IMG/VR virus record: IMGVR_UViG_3300009008_000030
DNA length: 64,000 bases
Direction: 5' to 3' (one strand)
DNA from: an uncultured virus (IMG/VR IMGVR_UViG_3300009008_000030)
Taxonomy: Duplodnaviria > Heunggongvirae > Uroviricota > Caudoviricetes
A program made the translations under genes and the position numbers. The notes beneath the pieces are model-generated. The model searched no databases. It worked only from the letters and a program-made list of their open reading frames with translations, and was not told where the DNA came from. Positions 1 through 55,812 of this stretch are shown here, one piece after another (position 1 is the stretch's first letter; each line of letters starts with the position of its first letter).

Positions 1-721
1 CATGAAGGGGGTTATAGCTTCCCACCACTATGTAAGGTTCGCTGGGATCGAAGCGCGGTGACACCTCATATTCCGTAAGAACGGGTAGATCTTGGGGATT
101 CCAGTCTACGGTCCTCCCCGGAGCGCGACGGCCACGACCACGCCGACCTGATGATGAGATCATGTAGGCAGCGAAGTCCATCCCCGTCTTGGTAAGGTCT
201 TTCTCCGTCCAGAAGCTCCCGCTAGGCATCCGTAGGACACGACCGAATCGCCCCTCATGGTCGATCTTAGCTCCCTGCTTGACGAAGCCTAAGATCGCTT
301 CTCGACGGCTCGTGTACTCCCCACCGAAGCCCTGGACCTTGTTGAGTGCGGCGATAGCTCTTGCTCTCGATCTCGGAGAGAGTTGGTCAGCGAAGCCGTA
401 GGTTTCTTCATAGGCGGCCTTCTCCGCAGACGCCTTAGCTGCGACCGAGGCCGACTTCTCTTTCATGCGCTGGTGAGAGCCTAGAGAGCGGGTATCGAAG
501 TCGATCTCCGACTCTAACTCAGCGGGTTGGAGCAGGATATGTCCAGTGCGCCCAGGCACCTCGATCAACAGCATCCCCGAGGGGTGCGTACCGACCACGG
601 TCTTGACCCCCTCTGGACTATCCCAGGAGCGCCCTACATCGGCACGACGGCCACGACCACGACGGGCTGCCGCGTAGCCTAGAGCGGCCCCTCCAAGGGC
701 ATAGGGGAAGTAGCCTGCCAC
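1..721 (-). CDS. RGRRA-linker modular protein (3' partial; absent from the ORF track)
   Basis: Manual translation from GTG at 721 gives MAGYFPYALGGAALGYAAARRGRGRRADVG..., with a second GRRGRGRRA at about 122-148. The frame stays open to the window edge. Confidence 0.8.
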   Translation of the reverse strand, partial: MAGYFPYALGGAALGYAAARRGRGRRADVGRSWDSPEGVKTVVGTHPSGMLLIEVPGRTGHILLQPAELESEIDFDTRSLGSHQRMKEKSASVAAKASAEKAAYEETYGFADQLSPRSRARAIAALNKVQGFGGEYTSRREAILGFVKQGAKIDHEGRFGRVLRMPSGSFWTEKDLTKTGMDFAAYMISSSGRRGRGRRAPGRTVDWNPQDLPVLTEYEVSPRFDPSEPYIVVGSYNPLH

Positions 722-725
722 TGAG

Positions 726-2336
726 TTACCATCCCCAGGCTCGGCGGCCTCGATTCTTGAGGCCCCATTCGCCTAGAACGCCATATTCGTCGGCTAGGGC
801 TTGCCAGGAGCCTGCGGATCGAAGTTCAGAGTCGAACTCTTTGGCGTACTCCTGGGCGACGTGCATCCGCGTTTCCTTGGGGAACACTTTGTGCCAGGGC
901 ACCCCAGGAGAACCGAACGCCTTGTTGTACTTCTTGGCTCCTGCATCCACTAGGTACATCCAGAGCTTCGGAGCGAGGGCGGGGTTGTACTTGCCGCTCT
1001 TGACCTTGCGAAGCTGGTTTTTGCGGATCTCAGTCTTCTGGCGATAAAGCTGGTAGTCGTTGTCGATGTAAAGCTCAAGCTCGCGGGCTGCGTGTTCATC
1101 CACAGCGCGGCGGCCTCGGGAAGATCGACCTCCCACTGCTGTGTAGTCTCCCCGCTCCAGCAGGAAGCTAGCCGCATGTTCTAGATCTGATTTCTTAGCG
1201 GGATTGCCTTTGTGATCAGTGAGTAGGAACACCAGTCCCTTCTCTTTCCACCCCGGCTGATTCGTTGCAGGGATCGCAAAATAGGTCTTGTTCTTGTTGA
1301 GCTTAATGCCCGTCCCTAACAAGGAGTAGTCCATGTTGGGGCTTACGCTGATCAAGTTATCCTCCCACGATGCGCGGCGGCCTCGGGCAGAGCGGCCTTT
1401 GCGAGCTTCAATGGCCTCTTGGAAGGTCGCAAAGAATCCGTGGTCTACTGGATCTTGGCCCACCCGGTTGGTCATTCGTCGCCAGTCGGAGTTAAGCCAG
1501 TAGTAGGTTACGGTGTCAAAGCTGCCGTCTGGATTGTCTTTGACAAAGGTGCCCTCCATCTGCTTACGCCAGCCTGCCGGGGGCTTGGGGCCAGGGTAGG
1601 CATAGCCTATCTTGACTCCAGCGCGGCGGCCTCGGCCACGAGCGCCTTCTCCTAGCGAATGTACGCCGAACTCAGCGCCACTAAGGTGCTTCACCAACTT
1701 CTTTGCGTCGGCAAGGCTAGACGACCATTCCTCAGCGCCACGATTCGGACCTGAGACCATCACCACATCAAAATGCTTCTCGCCCCGACTCTTGGAGATG
1801 TCAGCAACCTCTCGATCCCCGTAGGTAACGGTCCACATCTGTGTACCAAACTGGTTGACCCCTGCGCTGTGGGTGTACCACCTCTTCCCGGCGCGGCGGC
1901 CTCGGGAGCGTCGGCCCTTGTTGGCGGCTCCGGTCTTGGTGTGGCAGGTGCGTTTCTGGCCTCGACCAGAGCAGGTCACATCTTGGAATGGGCCTAGACC
2001 CCACTTCTCTGTTTTCTTGTAGATCAGCTTGAGGTCTGCCAGCGTAAGGTTGCCGTCCTTCCACGCCTTGGTGGCGAACTGCCTAGCGTTCACTGCCTGC
2101 TTCTTGCCGCAGTTCATGGGGTAGCCCCCGCTGAACGCTTTGCTCTTGCCGGAGCGAGTTGGATCTTCGTCCTTGTGCTTGCGCCTGTAGAGAGCGGATG
2201 CCTTCGACCAGGGAAGGGCAAAGTTGCTCCCGCGCATGGTGCGGCGTTGCTTGGCGGTGGGGTTGGTCTTGCACTTAGCCATGATCTCTATCTCTTTCCT
2301 GGCCACGGAACGTCGCCGTCTTTGTATAGCTGCCAC
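726..2336 (-). CDS. RGRRA-linker polyprotein with about 5 modules; likely start MAKCK at 2282
   Basis: RGRRA motifs at about 1890, 1620, 1372, 1105 and 740 separate distinct domains. The N-terminal module is basic and contains Cys. Confidence 0.85.
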   Translation of the reverse strand: MAAIQRRRRSVARKEIEIMAKCKTNPTAKQRRTMRGSNFALPWSKASALYRRKHKDEDPTRSGKSKAFSGGYPMNCGKKQAVNARQFATKAWKDGNLTLADLKLIYKKTEKWGLGPFQDVTCSGRGQKRTCHTKTGAANKGRRSRGRRAGKRWYTHSAGVNQFGTQMWTVTYGDREVADISKSRGEKHFDVVMVSGPNRGAEEWSSSLADAKKLVKHLSGAEFGVHSLGEGARGRGRRAGVKIGYAYPGPKPPAGWRKQMEGTFVKDNPDGSFDTVTYYWLNSDWRRMTNRVGQDPVDHGFFATFQEAIEARKGRSARGRRASWEDNLISVSPNMDYSLLGTGIKLNKNKTYFAIPATNQPGWKEKGLVFLLTDHKGNPAKKSDLEHAASFLLERGDYTAVGGRSSRGRRAVDEHAARELELYIDNDYQLYRQKTEIRKNQLRKVKSGKYNPALAPKLWMYLVDAGAKKYNKAFGSPGVPWHKVFPKETRMHVAQEYAKEFDSELRSAGSWQALADEYGVLGEWGLKNRGRRAWGW

Positions 2337-2665
2337 TCATAAGCTGCACTCTCAAAATCAGGCCAGGGTACTTCCTTGAAGTAGTCGCTGACAAACTTCT
2401 GGTAGTCACTCAGGCCCTTCATTCGCTTCGTGCGTGAGAAGGTGACTGTCTTTTGTCGGGGGGTACCTTTGTGGAAGGTGACACTACGGGGCTTGGGGAG
2501 CAACTGAGCTTGTTGTTCGCGCACCCATTTCGCCCCTTCGCTCTCGCCCGTAAAGGGGAGGTAGGGCTGCTGTGCGGCAGATCCACGTCCCTCCGCACCC
2601 TGCTGAGCCGCAACATAGCCCACCCCGGCTCCCACCAATCCCCATGCCATGTAGTTCTGAGCCAC
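2288..2665 (-). CDS. Small protein with hydrophobic Gly/Ala-rich N-terminal leader
   Basis: Starts MAQNYMAWGLVGAGVGYVAA; AGGAG RBS upstream. Confidence 0.7.
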   Translation of the reverse strand: MAQNYMAWGLVGAGVGYVAAQQGAEGRGSAAQQPYLPFTGESEGAKWVREQQAQLLPKPRSVTFHKGTPRQKTVTFSRTKRMKGLSDYQKFVSDYFKEVPWPDFESAAYEWQLYKDGDVPWPGKR

Positions 2666-2673
2666 GATCTCTC

Positions 2674-4029
2674 CTAGTCGCAGACGCAGTTGCGACGGCC
2701 TCGGGCGGCCTGTCCGGTGGTTGCATCAATGTACTTTTGCAGGCCGCCTTGAAAGGCGTAGCGGAAGTCGCTCCAGAACTCCTTGGCTACCGCGTTGGGA
2801 ACAGGACCGTTCTTGAAATACCGCTTCTTGAACTGCGCGAAGGTGTACCGCTTGGAGTAGGGGTTGACCTCTCTCCCTGCACGGCGACCGCTAGCTCGCC
2901 TGCCTCGGGCACCAGCAGGGGGTAGCGCATACCTCAATATTTCCTCTACGCGGTAAAAGGCTGCACTTTGCGTATGAGAAGTTCCATACGCAATCCTCTT
3001 GCCATGCAAGATTACCCCCCAACTCCATCCCAGCTTCCCAAACTTCTTTACAACCGCCCGCACCATGAACTTGCCGTAGGGGGCCTCCAGAACGTAGTGA
3101 CCGGGCTTGATCTCCGTGTACGCCTCACCCAACGCCTGAGACACCGGAGGGTAGGCGGCTCGCCTGCCTCGGGCGGCCTTCTTACGCCCCAGCCCGTAGT
3201 GTCCTGCCTTGGTCATGCGGTTGAGGTATGGCCCCTTGTGAAAGGACATGCGAGGGTGGCGCTTCTTCCAGAGGGCTTCGATGTGGTCCTGCGCTGCGTG
3301 GTATCGCCGCAGGTAGGAACGAAGATCCTCCTTCACCTTGCGGGGGAAGTGGTCGCGCACGACGCCTGAGATTGCAGAACCGTGAGATCCATGCTCCTTG
3401 AGAGCAGCAGCAACAGCGCGATTATACTTGCCCGCCCAGGTGTTTGCCTTACGGATCGCGCTGTCAAACTCTTTCTCAGACACATGCTGGCTTCGGACGT
3501 TACGCCTGCCTCGGGCGCTGTGGCCCGTCTTAGTGAGGCCCCTCAACTCAGCCTGAGCATCTTTTTTGAGGGTGTGCCACTCTCCCACATAGTCGTTGTT
3601 TACCCCTGTAACTCGGTACAAAGGGCGGCCCTTGTAGTGGTCATAGCCCTCAAAGATCTTGTACTTGAAAGAAGCGCGTCGTCTTGCGTCTGCGAGCGCA
3701 CCTCGTTCCTCGTCCTTGTCAGGATCATATCGAGCGCGACGGCCTCGGGCGCGGTGGCCTTCTTCCTGGGCCATGACCTTGGCGGTATTGTAGGCGTCCT
3801 CTCGGTCGTCGGTGTGATACCACTCCTCGATCTCGCGGCTACCCTGCGGCTTGACGATGTATTCTTCCCACTCTCGGTCAAAATAGACCTTCATCGGCCC
3901 GATGGTTTTCTTGAGTACCAGGGTGCCCCGGCGACCTTTGCCGCCGTGTAGAACATGCTCCACCGCTGCCTTTCCGGCTCCTGCGCCGAACGAGCTAATC
4001 GCTGCCTGTCCTAGTGACTTCCAGATCAT
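2674..4029 (-). CDS. RGRRA-linker polyprotein with about 5 modules
   Basis: Leader MIWKSLGQAAISSFGAGAG, then KGRRG, ARGRRA, ARGRRN, ARGRRA, ARGRRASGRRA and ARGRRN. Confidence 0.85.
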   Translation of the reverse strand: MIWKSLGQAAISSFGAGAGKAAVEHVLHGGKGRRGTLVLKKTIGPMKVYFDREWEEYIVKPQGSREIEEWYHTDDREDAYNTAKVMAQEEGHRARGRRARYDPDKDEERGALADARRRASFKYKIFEGYDHYKGRPLYRVTGVNNDYVGEWHTLKKDAQAELRGLTKTGHSARGRRNVRSQHVSEKEFDSAIRKANTWAGKYNRAVAAALKEHGSHGSAISGVVRDHFPRKVKEDLRSYLRRYHAAQDHIEALWKKRHPRMSFHKGPYLNRMTKAGHYGLGRKKAARGRRAAYPPVSQALGEAYTEIKPGHYVLEAPYGKFMVRAVVKKFGKLGWSWGVILHGKRIAYGTSHTQSAAFYRVEEILRYALPPAGARGRRASGRRAGREVNPYSKRYTFAQFKKRYFKNGPVPNAVAKEFWSDFRYAFQGGLQKYIDATTGQAARGRRNCVCD

Positions 4030-6573: not shown

Positions 6574-6582
6574 AGGCTCGAC

Positions 6583-38610: not shown

Positions 38611-38873
38611 TGTCCATTCGTCAGTACGTCATGGTTGAGTGGAGAAGTGCCGTTGTCTTTGGTAAGGGGCACAGCCAAGATCTCTCCTGCCAGCCCGCCC
38701 AGGAAGTACCCTGCGGCACCTCCCATCCAACAGGGGCCACCTAGCCTACGATTCAGCTTGCATCCATAGATGGTCCCGGCTATCGCCCCTGTTACCCCTA
38801 AGATCAAGGGAGGAATATCTATGGGGATGCCCTGGTCTTGGGCCTCGGCAGCAGCGAGAACGGCACGGAACAT
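38607..38873 (-). CDS. Small glycine-zipper membrane protein
   Basis: Two Gly-rich hydrophobic segments. Confidence 0.6.
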   Translation of the reverse strand: MFRAVLAAAEAQDQGIPIDIPPLILGVTGAIAGTIYGCKLNRRLGGPCWMGGAAGYFLGGLAGEILAVPLTKDNGTSPLNHDVLTNGQ

Positions 38874-41141: not shown

Positions 41142-41150
41142 GGCGCTCTC

Positions 41151-41675
41151 CTACCATTCCATCCCTGCCTGCCAAGCAGGTAGCGAAGGGTACAGCCCTC
41201 TGTACTCAAGTTCTTCCACGATCTTAAAAAACAAAAACGACCCCGGCTTACTACCTGACTCGGTAGCGATCACCTCCCAGAGCTTTCGCTTCTTGGCAGC
41301 GGTGTAAGGGGGAGAGACAGGCACATCACCGTCGCTCTCAAGGGAATCTACAAAGTCCTCGATCCATTCATCATCTTCCGCAGAACGGCGGCCTCGGGCA
41401 GAGCTTCCTGCCTTGCGGGCCATCTCGCGGGCCAGTGTACGCGCCCTTCGCTTGGTGGTAGCGAAGTCCCACGTCGTATTGTCACTTGGGTCAACCGCTA
41501 TGATGTACTGATCGAACTCCCAATCGAGATAGATGGGAATCCCCTTGACGGTCTCGACGTAATCTCGGCCTTCCTTCAACAACCACCTATCCACAGCCCG
41601 GCGGCCTCGACCACGCGCAGCCCCGCCGACCCGGCATCGGGTGAACTGTCCTCGGCGGTTGCGGCAGCTACTCAT
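41151..41675 (-). CDS. RGRRA-linker modular protein with Cys-basic leader
   Basis: MSSCRNRRGQFTRCR...ARGRGRRA...GSSARGRRS. Confidence 0.8.
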   Translation of the reverse strand: MSSCRNRRGQFTRCRVGGAARGRGRRAVDRWLLKEGRDYVETVKGIPIYLDWEFDQYIIAVDPSDNTTWDFATTKRRARTLAREMARKAGSSARGRRSAEDDEWIEDFVDSLESDGDVPVSPPYTAAKKRKLWEVIATESGSKPGSFLFFKIVEELEYRGLYPSLPAWQAGMEW

Positions 41676-41856
41676 GTCGATCTCCTACTTTCTTGCGATT
41701 GGGGGTCAAGGCCCAGGTGACGGCGGCACGGAGACCCTCAGCGAGCGCAGCCCCAGCAAGGCCCGTTACCTCGGGGCGAACGCGCTCAAAGGCCGCAGAT
41801 GCAGCCTCCTTGGCCTTTTGGCCTTTTTCGTCCACCGAAATATCCTCGTCAGTCAT
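41668..41856 (-). CDS. Small hypothetical protein
   Basis: 62-aa ORF overlapping the next start. Confidence 0.5.
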   Translation of the reverse strand: MTDEDISVDEKGQKAKEAASAAFERVRPEVTGLAGAALAEGLRAAVTWALTPNRKKVGDRHE

Positions 41857-41906
41857 ACCCTATCCCTCGCGTCGTCTGTGCCCTGTGCGAAGCCTCTAGC
41901 GGCGTC

Positions 41907-42761
41907 TCAGAAGCCTCCGCGCTTATACCACTGAGCGGCGTTTTTTCGGTTCATCAGAGACCACAGAACCCCTCGCTCTGCTGCATTAGGCTTAGTGCGG
42001 CGAATACTCACATACTTCATATCGCTACGGTTGCGAGCGTTCTGGGCCACAACCTCAGCCTCACGCAGACTTTTTACCGGGAGAATGACCTTGTTCTTCT
42101 TGCCCCTTGCTTTGCCCCATCCCGACATGAAGGAATCGGTAGCTGTGACGTAGCCCCATGCAGACGGGATCTCCTCGGCGCTGGTGACGATGGCGGCGCG
42201 GCGGCCTCGGGCTGCACTACCCCTCTCACCCTTCTCTACGAGCTTGATCAGCTTTCGATGGTCAGTCCATGCTCTGCGAAGCTCAGGGGTATCCTTGAGT
42301 CTCCCTGCGTCAAGCAGTTGCTTGGCATAGACTCTGGTTCGGAGAATGGTGGTTCGCCAATCTCCGTCCCATTCCCACTTAACGGTAGGGGCTCGCCTCC
42401 CTTGCATGGCGCGGCGGCCTCGACCACGGCTCAGGCTTTGGAAATACTTACGGTGTTTGATCGCTCGACCTTTGGCCTGCGCCCGCGTCTTGAAGCCGCT
42501 GCCTCTCTTGACCACCTTCGATATTACATAGCGACCGTCAGGTTGCGGCTCACTGGTAGAGATGTTCTCAGTGATGACGAACCCAAAGGTTCCAGTCGGT
42601 TCCTTCTTTGTGCGCCAGCTATATAGCGGCACATCGTGGTAAAGCCGAGGGGTCAAGGGGTTGAGGGGAGGTGCGCCGTCAGCGCGGCGGCCTCGACCAC
42701 GGCTCAGGCCATAGGCGGCTGCGGCTCCGACTGCGGCCATTCCTAGCTTGGCGTAGCTCAT
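41907..42761 (-). CDS. Leader-bearing RGRRA polyprotein, 3 modules
   Basis: MSYAKLGMAAVGAAAAYGLSRGRGRRA; ATGA overlap with the upstream gene. Confidence 0.88.
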   Translation of the reverse strand: MSYAKLGMAAVGAAAAYGLSRGRGRRADGAPPLNPLTPRLYHDVPLYSWRTKKEPTGTFGFVITENISTSEPQPDGRYVISKVVKRGSGFKTRAQAKGRAIKHRKYFQSLSRGRGRRAMQGRRAPTVKWEWDGDWRTTILRTRVYAKQLLDAGRLKDTPELRRAWTDHRKLIKLVEKGERGSAARGRRAAIVTSAEEIPSAWGYVTATDSFMSGWGKARGKKNKVILPVKSLREAEVVAQNARNRSDMKYVSIRRTKPNAAERGVLWSLMNRKNAAQWYKRGGF

Positions 42762-43354
42762 AGTAGATCCCACCCCTCTTGTATCTTGTTCAGTGCAGCC
42801 AAGACGTTCTCAGGAGACCCCTTTAGGCGCTTACTCTCCTTGATCCAAACGATAACTGCGGGGTCGTTGGTTGAGTCAGAAAAGTTGATAGCCAGAGAAC
42901 CAATCCACGCAGATCCAGTCCTGCTCTTTTTGTCGAACCTGAGCCTGATGCCTCTGGCGCTGTATTTTTTCCTAAGTAGGGCAGCGAACTGCTCTGCTTC
43001 CCCGACATACCCATTAGCGCGGCGGCCTCGGGCTGTACTACCTCCCGCATCTTCCCAATCATGGTACTCCTGCAAGGAGATAGAGGGTTTGCCCCCAGCA
43101 GCCGCGAGAATCCTCTTGGCTTCGTGCTTGTAGCCTTCCGCTAGAGAGGGATCGAAAGACATCCCTCCGCTCTCTATGTCTTTCAACATGCGGTGAAGCT
43201 CTCTAATCCCTGGCGCACCCCCTCCGAAAGCGTCTGAGTAAGCCTGAGATCTCCCAAGCTCAAAGTTACTCTCGTCGCGGCGGCCTCGACCACGGCTCAT
43301 GCCATAGGCTGCTGCGGCTCCAAAAGCGGCCATTCCTAGCTTGGCGTAACTCAT
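42758..43354 (-). CDS. Leader-bearing RGRRA polyprotein, 2 modules
   Basis: MSYAKLGMAAFGAAAAYGMSRGRGRRD...STARGRRA; AGGAG RBS. Confidence 0.88.
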   Translation of the reverse strand: MSYAKLGMAAFGAAAAYGMSRGRGRRDESNFELGRSQAYSDAFGGGAPGIRELHRMLKDIESGGMSFDPSLAEGYKHEAKRILAAAGGKPSISLQEYHDWEDAGGSTARGRRANGYVGEAEQFAALLRKKYSARGIRLRFDKKSRTGSAWIGSLAINFSDSTNDPAVIVWIKESKRLKGSPENVLAALNKIQEGWDLL

Positions 43355-43374
43355 CTCGTTCTCCTACCCTTCCA

Positions 43375-44517
43375 TCAGTCCCAGGATATGCCAGCAGCTT
43401 TCATGTCCCGCTTGAAACCCGCCCGTAGCTTCGGCAATCGCAGCTTGAGCCACCGATCAAGAGCCGCAGGGTCTTTAGACATGATTTTTCCAACATCAGC
43501 ACTCTTGTCGCTGGGAAGCGCCCCCCACACCACCGTGGACTTGAAGTGCGCCTTGTGGCCTTCCCTAGCCCAATACTTCGCGTTAGGTCGATAGTGCATA
43601 GGCCCCGACGAAGGGCTGAACAGGTGCCACTTGATGAGCGGGCGCAGCTTCGGGAAGTAGCGCCTCACCATGCCGTGGAGTTGGCCCCCCGACACTTCTC
43701 GACCGTTGGGGGCGTATCCGGTTCCCGTAATAGAAAAGTAGGGTTCCCGGTTCCCCCTAAGAAAGTTCATTCCATACTCAGCTTGGAACTTGCCTTTTCT
43801 GGAGTACCCGGTGTCTGCGGGCACCTTCTCGGTTTTCTTCCTTCGGCTGGACCCGGCGGCCATGACCCGGCGGCCTCGGGCAGAGCTTCCTTTTGGCTTC
43901 ACCATGTAGGAGTGGAGTTTTCTTAGGTCAGAGTCGGAGAGGGAGTCGAGGTATACGACCGCCGTGGAACCTTCCCAGCCCATGTGGTCATGGGCGGCGG
44001 GGCCGATCATAATGCCGATTCGCCCCCATCCCTTGTCACTTCTGTAGTCAGGGTGCTTGCTCGACCAAAGCTCCTTCATCAGCTTGGTACGCGAAGATGT
44101 CGCAGCGCGGCGGCCTCGGGCGCGGCGACCTCGGTCCCTCACTAGATCATTGGGATAGCCGCCCCACCAGTCGATAATCCCTCTGAGCGACCCTGGAGTG
44201 ATTCGTCCCAGGAAGTCGTCCGGTTGGTCGGTGATAGCCAATACTGAGCCTATCGAGGTGAACACCTCGTCGTCGGGATAGGGATGGACGAAACTCAACC
44301 GCTTGTACACCATAGCGCCTCCCCCATCCTCTGGATTGGGAATGAAGTAGTCCTGCCCGATGGTTACGGAGGCGTTGTCGATGAACTCCCCTTCGGGGGT
44401 GTCGATGCTGTGAGGGCCTGATCCAAGACGGATTCCAGCGCGGCGGCCTCGACCACGGCTTAGGCCGTAGGCGGCTGCGGCTCCAAAAGCGGCCATTCCT
44501 AGCTTGGCGTAACTCAT
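43375..44517 (-). CDS. Leader-bearing RGRRA polyprotein, 3 modules
   Basis: Same leader, then RGRRARGRRA and GSSARGRRV. Confidence 0.88.
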   Translation of the reverse strand: MSYAKLGMAAFGAAAAYGLSRGRGRRAGIRLGSGPHSIDTPEGEFIDNASVTIGQDYFIPNPEDGGGAMVYKRLSFVHPYPDDEVFTSIGSVLAITDQPDDFLGRITPGSLRGIIDWWGGYPNDLVRDRGRRARGRRAATSSRTKLMKELWSSKHPDYRSDKGWGRIGIMIGPAAHDHMGWEGSTAVVYLDSLSDSDLRKLHSYMVKPKGSSARGRRVMAAGSSRRKKTEKVPADTGYSRKGKFQAEYGMNFLRGNREPYFSITGTGYAPNGREVSGGQLHGMVRRYFPKLRPLIKWHLFSPSSGPMHYRPNAKYWAREGHKAHFKSTVVWGALPSDKSADVGKIMSKDPAALDRWLKLRLPKLRAGFKRDMKAAGISWD

Positions 44518-44657
44518 GTGAGAGGCTTCGGGCGACCGCGAACGAGGGTGACGAGGCCGCTAATGGCCCCACTGGCCAGGAAGAAGGTCATCCAGGGGTG
44601 TTCGTAGATCCAACCCTCGTGACACACAGGGCCTTCGGCGCGTTGTCCATATCTCAT
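44514..44657 (-). CDS. 47-aa membrane peptide (below the ORF-track cutoff)
   Basis: AGGAG RBS; MRYGQ...PWMTFFLASGAISGLVTLVRGRPKPLT; ATGA overlap. Confidence 0.65.
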   Translation of the reverse strand: MRYGQRAEGPVCHEGWIYEHPWMTFFLASGAISGLVTLVRGRPKPLT

Positions 44658-44666
44658 GTCGATCTC

Positions 44667-45008
44667 CTAGTAGGCGAGCAGCCGTGCCTTCTTGGCACTA
44701 CGGTACTCTCCAGGCGTGGCAGCAATAGTCATACTGGCTTCTTGAGCATTGGGAAAGACGGACAGGAGTGCGCTACGCCCACCGTACCCCTCGTCAACAA
44801 AGCCCAGGAACTTGCCGCTGCGGTCATGGACGTACCAGCCTCGACGGGGGTTTCCGTTTGTATCGTGGCCTGCGTTGATCTTCTGCGCCCATACCTTGTT
44901 GCGCGAGATAACGGGGATGCCTTTGTACCGCCTACGCTCAGCAGGACCGCGAGCCGCACGGCCCCGGCACTTCGTAAACTTCCCTGCTTTCGTTCTGCAA
45001 CTGTCCAT
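44667..45008 (-). CDS. Single-module protein with Cys-basic leader
   Basis: MDSCRTKAGKFTKCRGRAARG resembles the leader of 41151..41675. Confidence 0.75.
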   Translation of the reverse strand: MDSCRTKAGKFTKCRGRAARGPAERRRYKGIPVISRNKVWAQKINAGHDTNGNPRRGWYVHDRSGKFLGFVDEGYGGRSALLSVFPNAQEASMTIAATPGEYRSAKKARLLAY

Positions 45009-45018
45009 CTTGATCTCC

Positions 45019-45453
45019 CTATCTAAGCTCTTGCGGAATGTACCAGGGTTGAGGCTGGTGGAACACCGCCGACTCTACCCGCAAGCGAGATTGCTCCTGG
45101 GCCTCGGCCCTGGCCTTGGCCACGGCCTTGACCTCACTATCCCTTGCAGCAAACGCCAACTTGATTTTCTGCACCGCTGCGCTGGGGTCTTTCGACCTAC
45201 GCCAACTGCGGGTGCCCGATGAGAAATGCGACTTGAACCGCTGCGCTCCCAGCTTATCCACCCACGGCTTCGGCACTCCCACCCACACCACATGCCCCGC
45301 CGGGATATTCCCCACAGCGGCCACAGACGGCCCTCTGAGGGCCTTGAGCGAGCCCTCCCTGGTCAGGGTGTACACGAGCGCGTCTGTGGCCTCTACGGCG
45401 CGCAGAAAGGCCCGGTCATGGGCTGAGAACACAATGGCAGCGACAGGGGTCAT
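45019..45453 (-). CDS. Hypothetical protein
   Basis: ORF inside the array, without leader or linker. Confidence 0.6.
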   Translation of the reverse strand: MTPVAAIVFSAHDRAFLRAVEATDALVYTLTREGSLKALRGPSVAAVGNIPAGHVVWVGVPKPWVDKLGAQRFKSHFSSGTRSWRRSKDPSAAVQKIKLAFAARDSEVKAVAKARAEAQEQSRLRVESAVFHQPQPWYIPQELR

Positions 45454-45459
45454 AGGGCC

Positions 45460-45798
45460 TCAGTAGATGTACTGCGCCATTCGGCGCACCATGTTGTGTT
45501 CTGCTAGGTCTAGGCCGCGAGGCCCCAGGATTTCTTCGATCTCCCAATCATTCTGTAGAAACTTGTCTCCTACGGCTTCTCCCTCGGGATCGAAGATCTC
45601 CAGGCCCACATACCCCATCCTCAGATTGGTAATCAAGACGTAGAGGTAGCCGTCGTCTCCCTTGAATACGTCGATGCCGTCGTTGGTCCCTGCGCCTATG
45701 GGGAGGGCATGACCATTTACCAAGACCTTGGTGGACGGCCCGTAGTGCCCTGGTTGCCAATACTGTTCCTTGCGGAAGTCGATGGAGCGAAGTTTCAT
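45460..45798 (-). CDS. Hypothetical protein
   Basis: GGAGG RBS and ATGA overlap; no leader or linker. Confidence 0.7.
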   Translation of the reverse strand: MKLRSIDFRKEQYWQPGHYGPSTKVLVNGHALPIGAGTNDGIDVFKGDDGYLYVLITNLRMGYVGLEIFDPEGEAVGDKFLQNDWEIEEILGPRGLDLAEHNMVRRMAQYIY

Positions 45799-46616
45799 CG
45801 CCGCCTCCTAGCCCGTCGCCCACTCATGGCGAACTCCACGTCCTCGACTGAGACATACATATCGCTGCCTCGGTCATAGTGTCGGCCCTTTCGGGGGTCA
45901 TAGTACAAGATCTTGCCACTTCGGTAGCGGAACGGCCCCTCCATGCCAGGGATGGGCGGCGGCAAGTCCTCGGCGGGCCTAGACACCACACCTTGCTTCT
46001 CCCATGCCTGCGCCACCAAAGCTCGCTTCTCGGCCTTCGACATAGCGCGGCGGCCACGACCAAACTCCCATCCAGAATAGCCTCCAAACTCGCTAAACTC
46101 CTCAAAGCGGGCGATAGCTCGATCTAAGGCCGCTCTTGCCTTGGGGGTGTTGGGTCGCAGTCCTTTGTGGCTTCGATAGAAATTGGTGAATCGGCTCTCT
46201 ACTCGGTATTGCTTGTCCTTCTTGTCAAAGACCACCATCACCTTGCCCCACGGCTCAAAGTGGCTAGATCTCAAGATCTCCACATCTCCCGCAGCGCGGC
46301 GGCCTCGGTCAGAAAAATCCCACCCGTATTTCTCGCGCACTTGCCCGATAAGAAGGTACGGGGGAGTACGCATATCAGCTTCGATTGCATCAGCGACAGC
46401 ACGAGCTTCTTTTGCAGTACGATAGCGGGGAGGGGTAACGTCAAAGGTTCCGGTGGTCCGTTCCTCAACCGTCACATAATAACGACCTTCTTTGCTACGG
46501 GCCAACGACACCACGGGATAGATACCAGGGCCTCGGGCACGACGGCCTTGACCACGGCTCAGTCCGTAGGCTGCTGCGGCTCCGATTGCGGCCATTCCTA
46601 GCTTGGCGTAGCTCAT
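45795..46616 (-). CDS. Leader-bearing RGRRA polyprotein, 3 modules
   Basis: MSYAKLGMAAIGAAAAYGLSRGQGRRA, then DRGRRA and GRGRRA. Confidence 0.88.
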   Translation of the reverse strand: MSYAKLGMAAIGAAAAYGLSRGQGRRARGPGIYPVVSLARSKEGRYYVTVEERTTGTFDVTPPRYRTAKEARAVADAIEADMRTPPYLLIGQVREKYGWDFSDRGRRAAGDVEILRSSHFEPWGKVMVVFDKKDKQYRVESRFTNFYRSHKGLRPNTPKARAALDRAIARFEEFSEFGGYSGWEFGRGRRAMSKAEKRALVAQAWEKQGVVSRPAEDLPPPIPGMEGPFRYRSGKILYYDPRKGRHYDRGSDMYVSVEDVEFAMSGRRARRRR

Positions 46617-47473
46617 CTCGGCACCCTGCCGTCCACAAGAGGAACGAGACGATAGCCCGTATACCTTTTCGCCTCAGCCAGAGTGCGGAAGTGTGGCCCC
46701 TTGCGGCTCCAACCCCAAGACCGACTCTGGAACAGGTAGGAGTTATGATAGACCGCCCAGCGCGTGGCCTCCCGGCCCTTCGACCAGACTCGCTCCTTCT
46801 TGATCAAGACGGAGCCGCCGTCTGAGGGAGTTCTCGACCACAGGTAGCTACCGTCTCCCTGACGCTTGAAGTCGGGCTTGTGGGCTGCGCGGCGGCCTCG
46901 GGCAGAGTGTCCCGCCTTGCGGGTAACGTGCAGCACCCACATTCCCTTGCCTTCGTAGTAGGCTTCTACCTGGGTGACTCCAGGGATACTCAGGCCAACC
47001 TGTTTAGCCAGGGGAGCGAGTCGGTCCTTCTGCGCTTCATATTCGTAGTCGTCCAAACCGTCGATGTTGGGACCGTGCAATTCGTACTTATTGGGGCCTG
47101 CTGGCTCCAAGCTATCGAAGGCGTCCATATTTCTACGACCTCGGCGGGTGGCGTGGTGTGCCTGATATGCCTCAAGGTGGTGAAGCGCCTCGGCTAGTTG
47201 GTGGCGAAAGTCTCTGCCTATCTCAACGGTCGCGGCTGCGGCTCGCTCGGCCTCGTGGTCGTAGTTCGTGTGCGTCGGGTCGGCCTCGGGGAGCCACATC
47301 GCATCGATGGTGGCTTGCGCCCCGGCGATCTCGCAGTCGAGGCGGGAGATCGCGTCTCGGAGGGACTGTGGCGAAGAGTGGTCAATCTGGCTGGCGCGGC
47401 GGCCTTGACCACGGCTCAGTCCGTAGGCTGCTGCGGCTCCGATTGCGGCCATTCCTAGCTTGGCGTAGCTCAT
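46613..47473 (-). CDS. Leader-bearing RGRRA polyprotein, 3 modules
   Basis: Same leader (TGATG overlap), then RRGRRN and HSARGRRA. Confidence 0.88.
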   Translation of the reverse strand: MSYAKLGMAAIGAAAAYGLSRGQGRRASQIDHSSPQSLRDAISRLDCEIAGAQATIDAMWLPEADPTHTNYDHEAERAAAATVEIGRDFRHQLAEALHHLEAYQAHHATRRGRRNMDAFDSLEPAGPNKYELHGPNIDGLDDYEYEAQKDRLAPLAKQVGLSIPGVTQVEAYYEGKGMWVLHVTRKAGHSARGRRAAHKPDFKRQGDGSYLWSRTPSDGGSVLIKKERVWSKGREATRWAVYHNSYLFQSRSWGWSRKGPHFRTLAEAKRYTGYRLVPLVDGRVPR

Positions 47474-48993
47474 CAAAGGTACCTCTGCACGATGGGCCAC
47501 AGAGCGTCTTTATGCTCCGATAGGTCAGCGAGCGTCATGCTAGGTGCGTCAGGGAGCGCCTGAGCCAACTCCTCGACCAGCTTCCTGGCTGCTGGCTTTC
47601 CCCGGACGGTACCGAGGGCAATCCCGCTCGGCAAGTGCGTCACCGACCAGTAAAGGCGACCACTTTTCCACATGCCAAAGCCAGAGTCTCCGTAGATTTC
47701 CCCGTCCTTGTCGAGCCTTTCCCCCTGCGGGCTTGTGAGCGAGAGGGTGCCGGGTCGCCACGCAGACCTGCTTGCGCTTTTCTTGCGCGGCGTGACCACG
47801 GCAGAGCGGCGCAGGGTCAACCAGCCACGCTTGTACCCTACGGTCAAGGGGAGGTCATGGAGATAGGGATCTACCGCTCTCAACGACCGCTTGCTCTTGA
47901 GATTCCGCAAGATGGTGCCTGCGGCGGCCTCGGCCTGGGATTTTGTCAGAGCGTCGGTCCAGACGAACCAGCCCTGCCCCCGCCACAACAAGATGCGTCC
48001 GTCCTTCGCCTTCTTGGCCCCGGCTGGCTTGAGCAGGAGAGAAGCAGAGAGGTGTTCCTCCAGCCCACTGTACTCACGGCCTGCCCCCATCGCGGACTGG
48101 TGAGCATCGTAGTCGCGTCCCTTGTAGGGTTCGTGATGCTCCTGCCGCCGACCGATAGCGCGGCGGCTTTTGGCAGATCGATAGGTTCCATCAGAGCGCA
48201 GACGCTCTTCTCGATCCATGTTCAAACAAGCAGCCACAGCCCGACGCTCATCCCAACCCTCGCCACGCACCTTGCCGGAAATGCACTTGCTTACACGCTT
48301 GTTGTGCTTGCGGCCTCGGGCACTCCGGCCCTTCTTGAGCAAACCCAGCGCCTCGGCGCGGCGTACCGTCTTGGTTGCGTAGGCCCCACGCTTTACCCCG
48401 GTCGCTGCGTCATACCCGGCCTTCCACTCAATGCCGTGACGTTGGCTGATCTTACCCCGCCTGTACGCAGTCGAGGCCGCGACGATCTTCTTTGCCTTCT
48501 TCCCTGCCGCAAACCCAGCGCGAAAGTCGTCGTCCCATGCAGCTTTCCACTGTATGGGCGAACCGAAATCATCGACTTCGTATCCGGCAGGTCCAGCACG
48601 GCGGCCTCGGGCCTCGTGCCCTCCCAGCCGTGCCCAAGGGTCTCTGTGGTAGCTCCTCGGTGGTGCGTGGTGAAAGGTTACCTCCTTCCTGGCCGTGTCA
48701 AAGACCTCGACGGTGCGCGTGTCGTCCTCTGCGATCACCTCGTCGGCCAAGTCCCACGCAGCTTGCTGATCATCGGTACGCAGGATCACCTCGGGACCGC
48801 TGTAGTCAAGTCCGTAGCGTTGCTGATCGCCCATCACCGACATGCGAACGTGATAACGCGAGGGGCTGATCTTCTTGCGGCCCCTGTTCTGGCCCCAGCC
48901 CTGGCGCATCTTTTCTTCGGACCTCGCCGCCCAGGCTATGAGCCCGACTCCGGCGAGAGGCGCGATCCAACGTCCTGCGCTCATCACGACCAC
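47473..48993 (-). CDS. RGRR-linker polyprotein with variant hydrophobic leader
   Basis: MSAGRWIAPLAGVGLIAWAA, then NRGRKK, EARGRRA and SARGRK. Confidence 0.85.
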   Translation of the reverse strand: MVVMSAGRWIAPLAGVGLIAWAARSEEKMRQGWGQNRGRKKISPSRYHVRMSVMGDQQRYGLDYSGPEVILRTDDQQAAWDLADEVIAEDDTRTVEVFDTARKEVTFHHAPPRSYHRDPWARLGGHEARGRRAGPAGYEVDDFGSPIQWKAAWDDDFRAGFAAGKKAKKIVAASTAYRRGKISQRHGIEWKAGYDAATGVKRGAYATKTVRRAEALGLLKKGRSARGRKHNKRVSKCISGKVRGEGWDERRAVAACLNMDREERLRSDGTYRSAKSRRAIGRRQEHHEPYKGRDYDAHQSAMGAGREYSGLEEHLSASLLLKPAGAKKAKDGRILLWRGQGWFVWTDALTKSQAEAAAGTILRNLKSKRSLRAVDPYLHDLPLTVGYKRGWLTLRRSAVVTPRKKSASRSAWRPGTLSLTSPQGERLDKDGEIYGDSGFGMWKSGRLYWSVTHLPSGIALGTVRGKPAARKLVEELAQALPDAPSMTLADLSEHKDALWPIVQRYL

Positions 48994-50417
48994 CAGATGT
49001 TTCCACCTTCGCCTTGCGAGAGGTCTTTAATGGCCTCGACCCACTCATCGTAGGTCTTGACCGAAGGGGAGAGAGCATAGACGCTGCTGCTGTACCAAAA
49101 GTCGGTCTCACCAAAAGGCTGGGGATGGCCCTCAACTGCGTCTACATAGCGGTGCCAGCCGCCATAGTAGGCGGGCATTTCTGACATCCTTGTAACCACG
49201 ATCTCATAGCCATAGCCGTTCTTGAGCAGCCACTTGTTGAGTTGCTTCCACGTTCTCGGGGCCTTACCCCCGTCAGCATGACGGGCGCGGCGACCTCGGA
49301 ACTTCTCTTTCTGGCGGTACTTGGCCTGGGCTTTGGGATCGAGCAGTTCTTGCAGGGTGGTTTCGCCTCGGGTGACGGGGCTTGCTTCCCACCCGATCTC
49401 GCGCTTCGGAGACCCTTTGCGGCGACCTCGGGCAGAGCGGCCTTTGGGAGCCTCAATCACGATGGACAAAAGCTGGTCTGGGGTGCCCTTCATGGCATCT
49501 ACCCAATGTCCAGGCTCTCCCTTCTTGAAGGTGCCCGCAGGCACCCACGCTTCGGTCAGCAACCACGCGATCTCATCCTTGTCGAGATTCCACTGGTGAT
49601 CCCATATCCTGGGAGAAACTCGATAGAGAGTTCCCCGGTTATGCGAAAGACCAAAGGTCGCGGGAAAGCGGTTTATAGCTGCTTGGATCGCCTTGTCTCG
49701 GGCCTTGCTCTCTCGGCCCAAGCGGGAGTCAGAATAACTCGTGTCTCGTCGTCTTGGCCTTGACCCAGGTAGGGATACTCTCTTGGCGGCGGGCTTCTTA
49801 GCAGGACGACGGGCACGGCGGCCTCGGGCAGAGCTTCCCTTCTTCGCGCTGCGGCTATAGACCTCTTTCATCCCCCCACCCGGCAAGACACGCTCAACTG
49901 TGCCTCGCTCGGCGTCTCCGGTGCGGATAGAGTGATCGACCGACTCCACAGCATTGATGTTGCCCTCGCGCCCATACTCGCTCCAGCGGGTAGGGGAGAT
50001 CCCCTTTCCGTAGTGCAAGGTCACGATGTAGCGGTCCTGATGCTTAGCTCGGCGGCCTCGGGCAGAGTGGCCCCAGCCGGGTGTGGTCGCATAGTAGTGC
50101 TTGCGAGCCGCATCTACAGCGGCCTTGAGGGTCTTGAAGCGCCTCTTGAATGTTGTGGACTCCCACCCATCGTCGCCACGGAAGGTCACCCTCACCGCCC
50201 ACTTTCCTTGGGAGGAATCAACTCCGTAGGAAGGGCCTTCTGCGGAGTCCCAACGATACTTAGATTCGCCTTGCCGAGTCTGCCGACGCCAGTGCTTGGC
50301 ATCGGGCATCGGATCTCGCCTGCCTCGGGCAGATTGGCCTTGACCCTCGCTCAGGGCATAAGCGACGAAAGCCAAACCTCCTAGCGCCAAAACAGGCTTA
50401 ATGTCTCCAGCGGCCAT
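48984..50417 (-). CDS. RGRRA-linker polyprotein with variant hydrophobic leader, about 5 modules
   Basis: VLALGGLAFVAYALSEGQGQSARGRRD plus four more linkers. Confidence 0.85.
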   Translation of the reverse strand: MAAGDIKPVLALGGLAFVAYALSEGQGQSARGRRDPMPDAKHWRRQTRQGESKYRWDSAEGPSYGVDSSQGKWAVRVTFRGDDGWESTTFKRRFKTLKAAVDAARKHYYATTPGWGHSARGRRAKHQDRYIVTLHYGKGISPTRWSEYGREGNINAVESVDHSIRTGDAERGTVERVLPGGGMKEVYSRSAKKGSSARGRRARRPAKKPAAKRVSLPGSRPRRRDTSYSDSRLGRESKARDKAIQAAINRFPATFGLSHNRGTLYRVSPRIWDHQWNLDKDEIAWLLTEAWVPAGTFKKGEPGHWVDAMKGTPDQLLSIVIEAPKGRSARGRRKGSPKREIGWEASPVTRGETTLQELLDPKAQAKYRQKEKFRGRRARHADGGKAPRTWKQLNKWLLKNGYGYEIVVTRMSEMPAYYGGWHRYVDAVEGHPQPFGETDFWYSSSVYALSPSVKTYDEWVEAIKDLSQGEGGNIWWS

Positions 50418-50419
50418 GA

Positions 50420-52233: not shown

Positions 52234-52239
52234 CCTGCA

Positions 52240-53295: not shown

Positions 53296-53346
53296 GAGGG
53301 GCTCCGGTGCAAGTGAGGAACAAAGCTCGATCTAGCGAAGGCCCGA

Positions 53347-53381
53347 TGCCCTTGCTCCCCGTCAGGAGGGAGCGAGGGGCA
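53347..53381 (-). terminator. Stem-loop downstream of the basic protein gene
   Basis: tgcccttgctccc...gggagcgaggggca. Confidence 0.4.
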
Positions 53382-53399
53382 CCGGACCATCAAGATCAA

Positions 53400-54721: not shown

Positions 54722-55426
54722 TTAGAGACCTGCCAGGAAGAACACTACGTTGACCCCGATGTTGGAGGACACGGTGCCTGCGAGGGTACGAAGGGGCTGA
54801 CCTGCCACGGCGTTGACCACGAAGGTGGTAAAGGCCACACCGCCGCTCACGTTGTCAAAGGAGGTGAAGGTCAAGACACAGTTGGCCTCACAGACCATCT
54901 GCGCGGCCCCGTCAGGAACGGGAGTATTGGCCGCAGCCACCAGGGCGGTGATGGGCGAGCGCAGCAAGCCAGCGTCGGGCTGGGCGGGGAGTGCATCGAC
55001 CCACTGAATCCGCAGCGGGAAGTTCATGTCCGTACCGATGACGGTGGACTTGCTCTCCTGCACGATCTTAGCGTTCTGATACTGGCCCAAGGCCAAGGTC
55101 ACAGGAGTTCCCGGTCCTGCTACACAACGCCGGAACGCTGCACCGCCGTTGGAGTCACCGACTGTGATGTTGAGCACCGAAGATGTGGCCAAGGTTTGAT
55201 CTACGAAGCCACGAGGCTGGTCAATCACCGCACCGAGATAGGGACGGTTGGTGAATGGGTTGAGGGGCGGTGCGCCGTCGAAGAGCCGGTTGAGCGTCGG
55301 CGCGGCGATGGAGAGACCACGCGGGTACTGTGACCAGCGTACTCCGTCGATGGTGGGGTCGTTAGGTCCGAAGTGGCCTTTGTAGACCCGCTCTCCCGGT
55401 CGGTGGATAAATGGATCTTGGCTCAT
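54722..55426 (-). CDS. Beta-rich putative structural protein
   Basis: Start MSQDP by ATGA overlap; beta-strand-like patterning. Confidence 0.55.
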   Translation of the reverse strand: MSQDPFIHRPGERVYKGHFGPNDPTIDGVRWSQYPRGLSIAAPTLNRLFDGAPPLNPFTNRPYLGAVIDQPRGFVDQTLATSSVLNITVGDSNGGAAFRRCVAGPGTPVTLALGQYQNAKIVQESKSTVIGTDMNFPLRIQWVDALPAQPDAGLLRSPITALVAAANTPVPDGAAQMVCEANCVLTFTSFDNVSGGVAFTTFVVNAVAGQPLRTLAGTVSSNIGVNVVFFLAGL

Positions 55427-55812
55427 GCGATAGCTCCCATGCCGCCCTCGCGGGAGGGGTCGATGTATTCCACGCCAGGAACCCCCTCCACCTGCACGAC
55501 AACGTGCCACAGACCCGGCTGGGCCTGATAGGCCACAGGACGGGCTGGTATGCCCGCAGAGATAAGCTCACTGGCTACAGCGGTGGTCAAGTCCTCGCAA
55601 TCTCCGGTGCCCCTGGTCTTGACCTGTTCCCAGGTCAGCCATTCTTCATTGGGGTCGGCTTTGCGGTACTTGATGGTGCCGTCTTGCAGGCCCTTGAGGA
55701 CAGGGAGCTTCCCTACCTCTCCGGCGTCTGCAATCTGCATGAGATCACTCTGCACCAACCCGGCCAGTACCCCAGCCGCGTGTCGCGGGTCGAGGTCCAT
55801 GACAAGGCGCAT
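55423..55812 (-). CDS. Transglutaminase-like cysteine protease
   Basis: GDCEDL (Cys), GIPARPV, WHVVV (His) and YIDPS (Asp) form the triad. Confidence 0.82.
   Translation of the reverse strand: MRLVMDLDPRHAAGVLAGLVQSDLMQIADAGEVGKLPVLKGLQDGTIKYRKADPNEEWLTWEQVKTRGTGDCEDLTTAVASELISAGIPARPVAYQAQPGLWHVVVQVEGVPGVEYIDPSREGGMGAIA

Follow-up and report, generated by a model that had tools for sequence, protein, structure and literature searches.

In a 64,000-nucleotide (nt) stretch of DNA (hereafter the window) from IMG/VR record IMGVR_UViG_3300009008_000030, which is treated here as an uncultured marine phage with a bacterial host, five genes begin with a near-identical 81-nt leader of 27 residues and continue into payloads composed of small modules that are joined by the same arginine-rich motif with which the leader ends. 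The explanation that we favour, with about even confidence, is that these genes encode phage cargo polyproteins, in which the leader would be a common handling tag, the linkers would be dibasic protease sites and both would also serve as recombination junctions. A broader version is offered more tentatively, namely that a clade of marine double-stranded DNA phages expresses its small accessory proteins as dibasic-cut polyproteins, in which the 27-nt linker would double as an in-frame recombination joint, a module plus its linker would be the mobile unit, the leader would load the chains into the particle or the membrane and the cargo sets would be combinatorial.

The leader and the linker

The five leader copies, which a first-pass annotation of the window had reported from the letters alone, were found where it had placed them, all on the minus strand and each forming the N-terminus of a gene: L1 (MSYAKLGMAAVGAAAAYGLSRGRGRRA) at 42681..42761 in the gene 41907-42761, L2 at 43274..43354 in 42758-43354, L3 at 44437..44517 in 43375-44517, and the two GQGRR variants L4 and L5 at 46536..46616 in 45795-46616 and at 47393..47473 in 46613-47473, respectively (genes 1 to 5 below). 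A repeat search recovered them as a 5-copy family of 81-82 nt with 85-98% identity to the reference copy, and an invariant leader 23-mer occurs exactly 5 times with 0-3 mismatches allowed, while 0/100 shuffles matched. When the copies were aligned with 30-nt flanks, the likeness was seen to run from the ATG to the GRR codons and to halt there, just as had been claimed, the next codon being Ala in 4/5 and Asp in 1/5. The variable residues had also been given correctly (V/F/I at position 11, L/M at 19 and R/Q at 23), and the payloads are indeed unrelated since an all-versus-all blastp of the pieces between RGRR motifs yielded no payload-payload match among the five genes at E <= 1e-4. Flank alignment and blastp thus contradict a likeness continuing into the payloads as in ordinary whole-gene duplication. 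Assembly artefacts, the other outcome that would have undone the annotation, are contradicted by a contig of run X4 that spans 42582-43574 and bridges L1 and L2 with both flanks, and by the recurrence of the five leader proteins on 1-7 contigs each in a protein collection (one of them with 2 substitutions); a contig of run X2 spans 41100-43299, X4 and X2 being other runs of the study from which the window possibly comes.

Four copies are coupled to the stop codon upstream, as had been noticed, by ATGA overlaps at L1 (with the stop of 42758-43354), L3 (with that of a small open reading frame, or ORF, at 44514-44657) and L4 (with that of 46613-47473), and by a TGATG overlap at L5 (with the stop of 47473-48993). 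L2 is preceded by a 20-nt spacer containing AGGAG. All copies begin with ATGAG, so that a TGA in the neighbouring frame comes with the leader itself. The small ORF directly upstream of L3 (44514-44657, minus strand) encodes 47 residues with a hydrophobic segment.

Identical runs between leader copies measure 23-74 nt, the longest being that of the adjacent L4 and L5, which are 98% identical (2/81 nt differ), and the near-identity of this pair implies its recent duplication or conversion. The comparison of synonymous and non-synonymous changes that had been suggested as a check was extended to six copies, the five of the window and one on a related contig (L008). Over the 15 pairs, non-synonymous divergence (dN) is 0-0.07 and synonymous divergence (dS) 0.10-0.61, with all ratios <= 0.24, indicating that the leader peptide is maintained by purifying selection. 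The dS of up to 0.61 also implies that some of the copies are older, little as L4 and L5 differ. The leader is laid out as a single Lys (Lys5), a 14-residue Gly/Ala-rich core (residues 6-19, of which 11/14 are Gly or Ala in L1) and 4-5 Arg directly behind it. As to the transmembrane or amphipathic helix named in the annotation, the segment is non-amphipathic (helical moment 0.03-0.14), and with a uniform 1.2-1.4 as its best Kyte-Doolittle mean over 15 residues it is too weakly hydrophobic, and also too short, to span a membrane in the classical way. In character it is like a signal-peptide core or a SAR-type segment.

The motif that closes the leader recurs inside the payload genes every 65-125 residues, which the first-pass annotation had overlooked, and again in a second cluster at 2-6612. 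It takes two forms, S-R-G-R-G-R-R-A and G-x-S-A-R-G-R-R-A, with G-[S/R/H/A]-[S/R]-[A/G]-R-G-R-R-A as the consensus linker. The DNA core CGAGGCCGCCG has 35 matches (<=1 mismatch) where 4.05 are expected, with 34/35 on the minus strand. At the protein level, RGR[RK] occurs 38 times, in 14/48 genes taken as coding, and is found in 0/17 genes between 6821 and 41141, replication and lysis genes included. In the motif logo, Ala follows RGRR in 27/35 and Gly stands at position -4 in 20/35. Codon usage is even more uniform: the first linker Arg is CGA in 31/35 against a background of 0.16 (binomial P 6e-21, a value that is overstated because the linker copies are not independent), the Gly is GGC in 30/35 and the further Arg codons are CGC in 25/35 and 22/35. 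Such frozen codons would fit shared descent or homogenisation by recombination. An RGRR-type motif is also found 4-5 residues ahead of the stop codon in several genes, as a vestige, and behind every leader type. The idea that translation also starts internally, just after the GAGG of the linker, was dismissed, Met standing two residues after RR in only 4/35.

In the five leader genes the linkers, all on the minus strand, are GSAARGRRA (42198..42209) and SRGRGRRA (42411..42422, identical in form to the leader end) in gene 1, GSTARGRRA (43019..43030) in gene 2, GSSARGRRV (43867..43878) and a double linker DRGRRARGRRA (44107..44133) in gene 3, FGRGRRA (46047..46058) and SDRGRRA (46296..46307) in gene 4, and GHSARGRRA (46889..46900) and TRRGRRN (47132..47143) in gene 5.

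Modules, relatives and exchange at the linkers

The chains comprise a leader and one to several small modules that are unrelated to each other. Gene 1 (41907..42761, minus strand; 284 residues, P0001) consists of the leader and modules 27-117, 118-188 and 189-284, the last of which matches phrog_5423 and has a stand-alone relative, P0002. Gene 2 (42758..43354, minus strand; 198 residues, P0010) has two modules, the last recurring in P0005 behind two different ones. Gene 3 (43375..44517, minus strand; 380 residues, P0003) has three, of which the last (163 residues, phrog_17696) is found again in P0009, there preceded by a different module, and the middle one in P0018. There are likewise three modules in gene 4 (45795..46616, minus strand; 273 residues), where the last matches phrog_13298 and from which P0004 differs by 2 residues, and in gene 5 (46613..47473, minus strand; 286 residues, P0008). 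Pieces between motifs are mostly 65-125 residues long, and 30/43 are basic, with a median isoelectric point (pI) of 9.5.

An idea of the origin of these modules came from the PHROG families. Four modules of the window and one of a relative match small families, all five of unknown function, over most of the profile where coverage allows (phrog_5423, 9-86/93; phrog_7884, 18-64/66; phrog_1273, 9-97/103; also phrog_13298 and phrog_17696). In P0002, the relative of the last module of gene 1, the likely start Met146 falls, in the alignment, on the residue that gene 1 has at its RGRR site. The modules therefore appear to be former independent proteins. No Pfam or NCBIfam model matched any chain (Pfam at E <= 0.01, over the window chains and P0005-P0013). 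An AlphaFold2 model of gene 1, computed without alignment, was too poor for domain borders (mean predicted local distance difference test, pLDDT, 36.5), and the placement of RGRR in coil behind helices in it was not counted.

The same architecture extends beyond the five leader genes. On the minus strand, 47473..48993 has a different Gly/Ala-rich hydrophobic N-terminus and 3 RGR[RK] motifs, 48984..50417 encodes a chain of 477 residues with another hydrophobic leader ending in QSARGRR, four further RGRR linkers and modules that recur in P0015-P0020, and 41151..41675 has one internal linker and a leader of a second type (MSSCR...FTRCR), which ends in RGRGRRA. A second RGRR-linked cluster at 2..4029, also on the minus strand, is formed by the genes 2-721, 726-2336, 2288-2665 and 2674-4029; of these, 726-2336 shares a module with P0011, where it stands after the leader, and 2674-4029 contains one that matches phrog_7884. 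Five genes (48984-50417, 47473-48993, 2674-4029, 2288-2665 and 2-721) have other Gly/Ala-rich hydrophobic starts, aromatic-flanked and followed by an RGRR-like motif, and two polyproteins (726-2336 and 41151-41675) are without a hydrophobic leader. The latter gene and 44667-45008 (both on the minus strand) have in common a Cys-containing start, M-S/D-S-C-R...G-Q/K-F-T-R/K-C-R, with 58% identity over 26 residues, and are otherwise unrelated. Next to the second cluster, in the stretch 4030-6612 (minus strand), the SNF2 helicase ORF contains an RGRRA motif at residues 25-29, and a short ORF directly upstream of it ends in GHSNRGRRSRSRR; the helicase may be part of the same linked expression system.

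A query of 40 residues (the leader and 13 more) against 5.8 billion protein clusters gave 344 candidates and 12 proteins at E <= 1. All of these (12/12) begin with the leader, in a close variant in the case of P0013; five are the window genes and seven have architectures absent from the window. In P0005, the leader and two new modules precede the last module of gene 2 (99% over all 86 residues), while in P0009 the leader and one new module precede the last module of gene 3 (100% over 163 residues). P0012 has a leader end that is chimeric with the leader end of 48984-50417, followed by the new module of P0009 and three others, and P0011 combines the leader and new modules with a module of the leaderless window gene 726-2336 (95% identity). 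P0007 is gene 5 (P0008) minus its middle module, joined RGRR to RGRR; P0006 consists of the leader and a phrog_1273 module, and P0013 of its variant leader and a new payload. Common modules are 95-100% identical end to end and their neighbours are unrelated, and in P0005, P0009 and P0012 the first module behind the leader has been replaced, relative to the window genes, right at the RGRR end of the leader.

The setting of P0006 is also instructive. On contig L008 its gene lies between homologues of 7750-8733 and 7389-7736, two genes that are 13 nt apart in the window, which implies a clean gene-sized insertion or deletion. In the 1034-1432 region of this contig, the homologue of the 327-residue window protein 7750-8733 has 357 residues and an extra Gly-Thr/Gly-Ala repeat stretch, which is a length-variable low-complexity insert.

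More distant relatives, P0015-P0020, were found with the 477-residue chain, to which they show 32-77% identity in common modules. They have other Gly/Ala-rich hydrophobic leaders ending in the same motif and the same linkers, yet other module orders. Contigs of four runs were in addition compared with 41100-50500. Contig ends lie <=16 nt from an RGRR site in 15/24 of the loose ends listed (90 further ones lie beyond the listing) and in 10/20 joint ends, where 11.6% is expected; some loose ends may come from other polyprotein genes that have only the motif in common, and joints in metagenome contigs at 85% likeness are weak. Owing to these cautions, the protein comparisons are the cleaner evidence for shuffling.

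Taken together, comparison of the predicted proteins has shown that relatives carry other module combinations, with breakpoints at the linkers. The portability of the leader, which the first-pass annotation took for a targeting tag, is thus borne out by the 12 leader proteins with different module sets, the shift in position on L008 and the purifying selection on the leader. Its second proposal, that the leader is a homology arm through which payloads are captured, swapped or deleted, was right about the outcome (swaps in P0005, P0009 and P0012, deletion in P0007) but not about the unit of exchange, which is the RGRR linker, internal copies included, rather than the leader as such. Exchange at the linkers could reflect either recombination aimed there or selection keeping only the in-frame joints.

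Proposed cargo polyproteins and competing explanations

What could a chain of unrelated modules joined by a uniform linker be for? The Arg-rich linker is probably a cutting site, a view suggested by where it occurs (between former independent proteins, after leaders of every type and, in vestigial form, near stop codons) and by its fit to dibasic sites. With two basic residues followed by a small one it would be recognised by an endoprotease, which would split the chain into individual small proteins and take off the leader in the same cut. The leader would act as a common handling tag through which the complete chain reaches a single destination, in all likelihood the assembling virion, perhaps via the membrane. 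The virion is proposed because the minus-strand block lies between the lysis genes and unrecognised, probably structural genes, and loading of the chain into the particle by the leader would follow from this gene order together with two precedents, T4 (PMC3012670) and the polyvalent proteins (PMC5512222). The codon-frozen DNA of linker and leader would provide the joints for module exchange, giving rise to a rapidly reshuffled cargo set.

A close precedent is found in T4, where the internal proteins IPI-III have a capsid targeting sequence (CTS) that is removed by the prohead protease and are encoded in a variable locus (PMC3012670). As in the T4 case, a short conserved N-terminal peptide is the sole common part of diverse, fast-changing small proteins, it ends at a protease site (here putative) and the genes lie in a variable locus (PMC3012670). 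However, the leader is hydrophobic and Gly/Ala-rich and ends in R-G-R-R, and the cargo consists of several modules joined by the same motif. These differences are compounded at the level of the cut. The T4 gp21 prohead protease site ends in Glu, whereas the leader ends in S-R-G-R/Q-G-R-R-A, without any Glu as a site of the gp21 type would require. Neither a T4-type prohead protease nor head genes were recognised by Pfam or PHROGs among the window ORFs scanned, the window being part of a genome. In giant phages of the SPN3US type, head and ejection proteins are reported to be processed by the prohead protease, a single short motif marking the cut in a large number of head-associated proteins (PMC7411985, PMC5694885). 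In contrast, the present system has another motif and another leader type, it concatenates proteins that are independent elsewhere, and no such protease was found in the window.

Polyvalent proteins, which are encoded by phages and conjugative elements, are mosaic chains of 2-15 unrelated domains, for which packaging and proteolytic release of domains have been predicted (PMC5512222). The likeness lies in the several unrelated domains per chain (here 2-6 modules) and in the SNF2 helicase that adjoins the second cluster; the difference is that polyvalent proteins are defined by known conflict enzymes, often with an embedded peptidase, whereas the present chains are without a Pfam domain and have a uniform linker and a common leader (PMC5512222). 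The CdiA-CT/Rhs cassettes are another parallel, in which a VENN motif borders variable modules, orphan modules occur and the coding DNA of the motif is thought to provide homology for replacement (PMC7662968). A conserved junction motif likewise precedes exchanged variable modules here, although this is an analogy of mechanism only: contact-dependent inhibition (CDI) and Rhs proteins are bacterial surface toxins with immunity genes and a single variable tip, whereas here there are several modules per chain in a phage setting, and scans of the window found no domains of a CdiA/Rhs delivery scaffold or of cognate immunity genes.

Polyproteins cut at dibasic sites are familiar from eukaryotic viruses, where flavivirus NS2B-NS3 and furin-type proteases (R-X-K/R-R) do the cutting. 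R-G-R-R followed by a small residue would fit both specificities, and as in those viruses one translation product would yield many proteins. As to a furin/kexin-type site, 35 RGRR sites stand at module borders and L4 and L5 read Q-G-R-R. Unlike in those viruses, the host is bacterial, and the scans of the window revealed no protease of the S1 or S8 type. Searches of the open-access literature found no description of the motif or of the architecture in phages, and by its hydrophobic leader, dibasic linker code and module-by-module shuffling the system is set apart from known tagged, protease-processed phage cargo.

Cutting at the joints, if it takes place, would mean that a bacteriophage is able to place a large number of small accessory proteins, a kind that includes anti-defence and host-takeover factors, in few translation units, route them with one tag and reshuffle them by module. 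This would give a handle on which orphan phage proteins are delivered cargo and on the fast evolution of accessory repertoires, and leader and linker would, if the proposal is true, be usable as parts for loading foreign proteins into the particles of this phage group. Even without cutting, module exchange at one short conserved in-frame motif is an unusually clean natural case of linker-mediated domain shuffling.

Several observations nevertheless weigh against the cargo polyprotein proposal. The weak, uniform hydrophobicity of the leader is unlike the T4 CTS and fits a membrane or export role instead. The uniformity of the linker codons could mean that DNA or RNA, and not the peptide, is selected. 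Linkers have decayed in P0015, P0019 and P0020 (e.g. GHGAGQRAG and GRSAKGGRD), so cutting cannot be needed at every joint. As for exchange, the RGRR sites flanking the module that is missing in P0007 have only a short DNA match in the window, so that a deletion driven by homology is conjectural. Pfam and PHROGs recognised no gene for a head protein, portal, terminase or prohead protease among the window ORFs scanned, and the late, virion-associated context is therefore read solely from gene position. Finally, no protease could be tied to the RGRR motif: a signature scan for S1, S8, zincin and Clp types in open frames of >= 90 residues gave only chance-like matches and no serine-protease or zincin signature, and around the homologues of the one candidate described below (L010-L013, few kb of flanks), a crude six-frame ORF and regular-expression listing read by eye revealed no chain of repeated RGRR linkers.

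In the window ORFs, neither Pfam nor PHROGs turned up a prohead, serine or metallo-protease. The sole protease-like gene, and thus a candidate, is at 55423..55812 (minus strand) and encodes a transglutaminase-fold protein of 129 residues with an invariant Cys72-His103-Asp118. It has a borderline Pfam match to Transglut_core (E 9e-5) and 375 relatives at E <= 0.001, and Tyr49, Cys72, His103 and Asp118-Pro-Ser are invariant in 40 related sequences. Its predicted structure (pLDDT 93.8) resembles transglutaminase-fold cysteine proteases and isopeptidases (TgpA, LapG, 3isr, CPR-C4 and PeiP/PeiW; template modelling, TM, scores 0.46-0.55), while a sequence search of the PDB gave nothing below E 0.65. 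Phage relatives of this fold can be cell-wall enzymes. Its alignment retrieved from the viral-contig collection one distant locus, without RGRR motifs, and homologues at 42-44% identity are found on four contigs of metagenome-assembled genomes (MAGs), L010-L013, which are GC-rich and have scattered single RGRR-like matches, some of them in long ORFs. Two of these four contigs are labelled Myxococcota; the label is not taken to name the host since binning of phage-like contigs is unreliable. The protease may be encoded outside the window or by the host.

Of the competing explanations, one turns the membrane-like character of the leader into its function and is, in our view, unlikely: the leader would be a signal peptide or an anchor to the envelope, and the dibasic joints would be cut by a host envelope protease. 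The leader has a short N-terminal part with one Lys (Lys5), a 13-14-residue Gly/Ala-rich core (6-19) and small residues (A-Y-G / G-L-S), which might be read as the Sec pattern of a basic N-region, a hydrophobic core of about 10-15 residues and small residues ahead of the cut, and the starts of relatives are more signal-like still, e.g. MKKLLVAAGAAALGAAAVG and MSRKYILAATGLAALGG. A Sec signal is free of a basic cluster behind the core, however, and here R-G-R-G-R-R begins no more than 2 residues after it. Sec export is blocked by a basic stretch at this place, and by the positive-inside rule the Arg cluster should keep the C-terminal side, and with it the cargo, in the cytoplasm. Nor does the leader look like a Tat signal, its Arg residues lying behind the core instead of ahead of it and no NCBIfam model matching. 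With SAR domains it has in common a weakly hydrophobic Gly/Ala-rich N-terminal segment, but these are linked to muralytic enzymes or pinholins, and no lysin domain was found in the payloads, while the M15 endolysin (38092-38610) is without such a leader. Signal and sorting models of NCBIfam and Pfam gave no match to the leader chains. Many neighbouring genes with Gly-rich C-terminal anchors and the adjoining lysis genes would be in accord with an envelope destination, in contrast to the polyproteins 726-2336 and 41151-41675, which have no hydrophobic leader, and to the modules, which match small cytoplasmic-type phage proteins of unknown function. As for the cut, omptin outer-membrane proteases prefer to cleave between two basic residues followed by Ala, although they are known only from few bacterial groups.

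Similarly doubtful is a scenario in which nothing is cut, the chains acting whole as 'polyvalent' proteins and the Arg-rich peptide being a flexible spacer kept uniform as a recombination joint. Module exchange at the joints is, after all, the best-documented property of the system, the linker codons are uniform far beyond codon bias, and some joints have decayed in relatives with the reading frame kept. Yet a spacer needs no fixed sequence, and the motif covers 9 positions, with the Ala after RR in 27/35, and persists in relatives even though the modules there are down to 32-77% identity. Phages do have polyvalent proteins with 2-15 domains in one chain, some of them delivered without processing (PMC5512222). 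Nevertheless, the modules of the present chains correspond to complete independent proteins elsewhere, and a motif that closes every leader type and stands near the stops of several genes fits 'module plus cut site' better than a spacer.

It is improbable that a nucleic-acid sequence of 17-25 nt is the functional element, as a recombinase target, an RNA processing site or a ribosome-pausing site, with the peptide incidental. The preference for CGA as first Arg codon (31/35 against 0.16 expected) and the strand bias (34/35) would be explained, a possible recombinase is at hand in the serine recombinase gene at 12731-13486, and the linker contains GAGG. However, each copy of the motif falls within a real gene and is read there in one and the same frame, synonymous variants (AGG, CGT, CGA, GGT) keep the peptide, as do the relatives, and in most copies there is no start codon at a usable distance behind GAGG. 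A recombinase would only delete, all copies being direct repeats, and no dyad symmetry was seen in a reading by eye. As to ordinary paralogues with alike 5' ends, or mis-assembly, the adjacent and nearly identical L4 and L5 with their 74-nt identical run are outweighed by the absence of likeness into the payloads, the dS of up to 0.6 between other copies, and the presence of the same proteins on several contigs and in several sources with contigs bridging L1 and L2, which makes this explanation extremely improbable.

Genome setting and neighbouring genes

The window has a G+C content of 55-64% in 2-kb windows, and its genes are densely packed with frequent ATGA overlaps. They include those for a family-A DNA polymerase (25907-27763), a D5-type primase-helicase (32896-35163), the SNF2 helicase that adjoins the second polyprotein cluster (4030-6573), a PD-(D/E)XK nuclease (30908-32545), the M15 endolysin (38092-38610) and two GDSL hydrolases, and a DnaJ-domain protein, a small serine recombinase and a VRR-NUC nuclease are also encoded. 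The host is taken to be bacterial because of the M15 endolysin, a peptidoglycan-binding protein and the overlapping start and stop codons. The runs that contain the region come from 12 studies, all of them metagenomes of marine or seawater origin, and related contigs reach 74 kb, the window being part of the genome.

Relatives among described phages are remote. No DNA match to 41000-50500 was found in 50,697 deposited phage records, which also gave no protein match for the two late proteins tried (57085-58641 and 55423-55812), and the closest polymerase among deposited phages, from an ordinary myovirus, is 29.7% identical. In the viral-contig collection, the exact leader pattern had 0 matches, as did the 518-residue protein 57085-58641, and a degenerate leader 23-mer hit 7 loci, all of them unrelated proteins containing YAKLGMAA by chance. 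The genome-contig collection also gave 0 matches to the leader pattern, and for this reason no host was identified through the leader. ESM Atlas returned no usable result for 57085-58641 or for the last module of gene 3.

The leader-bearing genes lie within one compact minus-strand run, between the M15 endolysin/GDSL genes and a block of unrecognised genes, and no excess of promoter-like or terminator-like sites was seen in the polyprotein gene run. Gly-rich C-terminal membrane anchors are encoded, on the minus strand, by 50420-50782, 50754-51104, 51109-51996, 52240-53295, 53952-54719, 40236-41141 and 7750-8733; in these genes, which are without Pfam or PHROG match and of which those at 50420-54719 form a consecutive run, a Gly-rich hydrophobic end is followed by basic residues. 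So many anchors imply that the phage makes many membrane-associated proteins, and it is possible that the particle or its assembly involves a membrane.

Among the other genes, 55839-57019 (minus strand) encodes three adjacent proteins of 124, 127 and 133 residues, alike in size and in their Gly/Ala/Thr-rich composition, that adjoin the 518-residue protein 57085-58641, whose first 100 residues are helical; none of the four is recognisable, the best match being phrog_2952 (minor tail protein) at E 0.019. On the plus strand, 12731-13486 encodes the serine recombinase, of 251 residues, with a resolvase domain (E 2e-29) and with models for CcrB, invertase and XisF matching weakly, and the ORF 20246-21286 (minus strand) matches phrog_6247 'DNA topoisomerase' at E 1.8e-69, without a Pfam family at E <= 0.001. 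The product of 53400-53840 (minus strand; 146 residues, pI 11), with a net charge of +32 in its first 112 residues and one RGRRA motif, may be a DNA-condensing virion protein. Finally, the lysis block at 38092-41141 (minus strand) is unusual in combining an M15 peptidase, two GDSL/SGNH hydrolases and a peptidoglycan-binding-like protein with a C-terminal anchor, and the presence of esterases there would point to an esterified layer in the envelope of the host.

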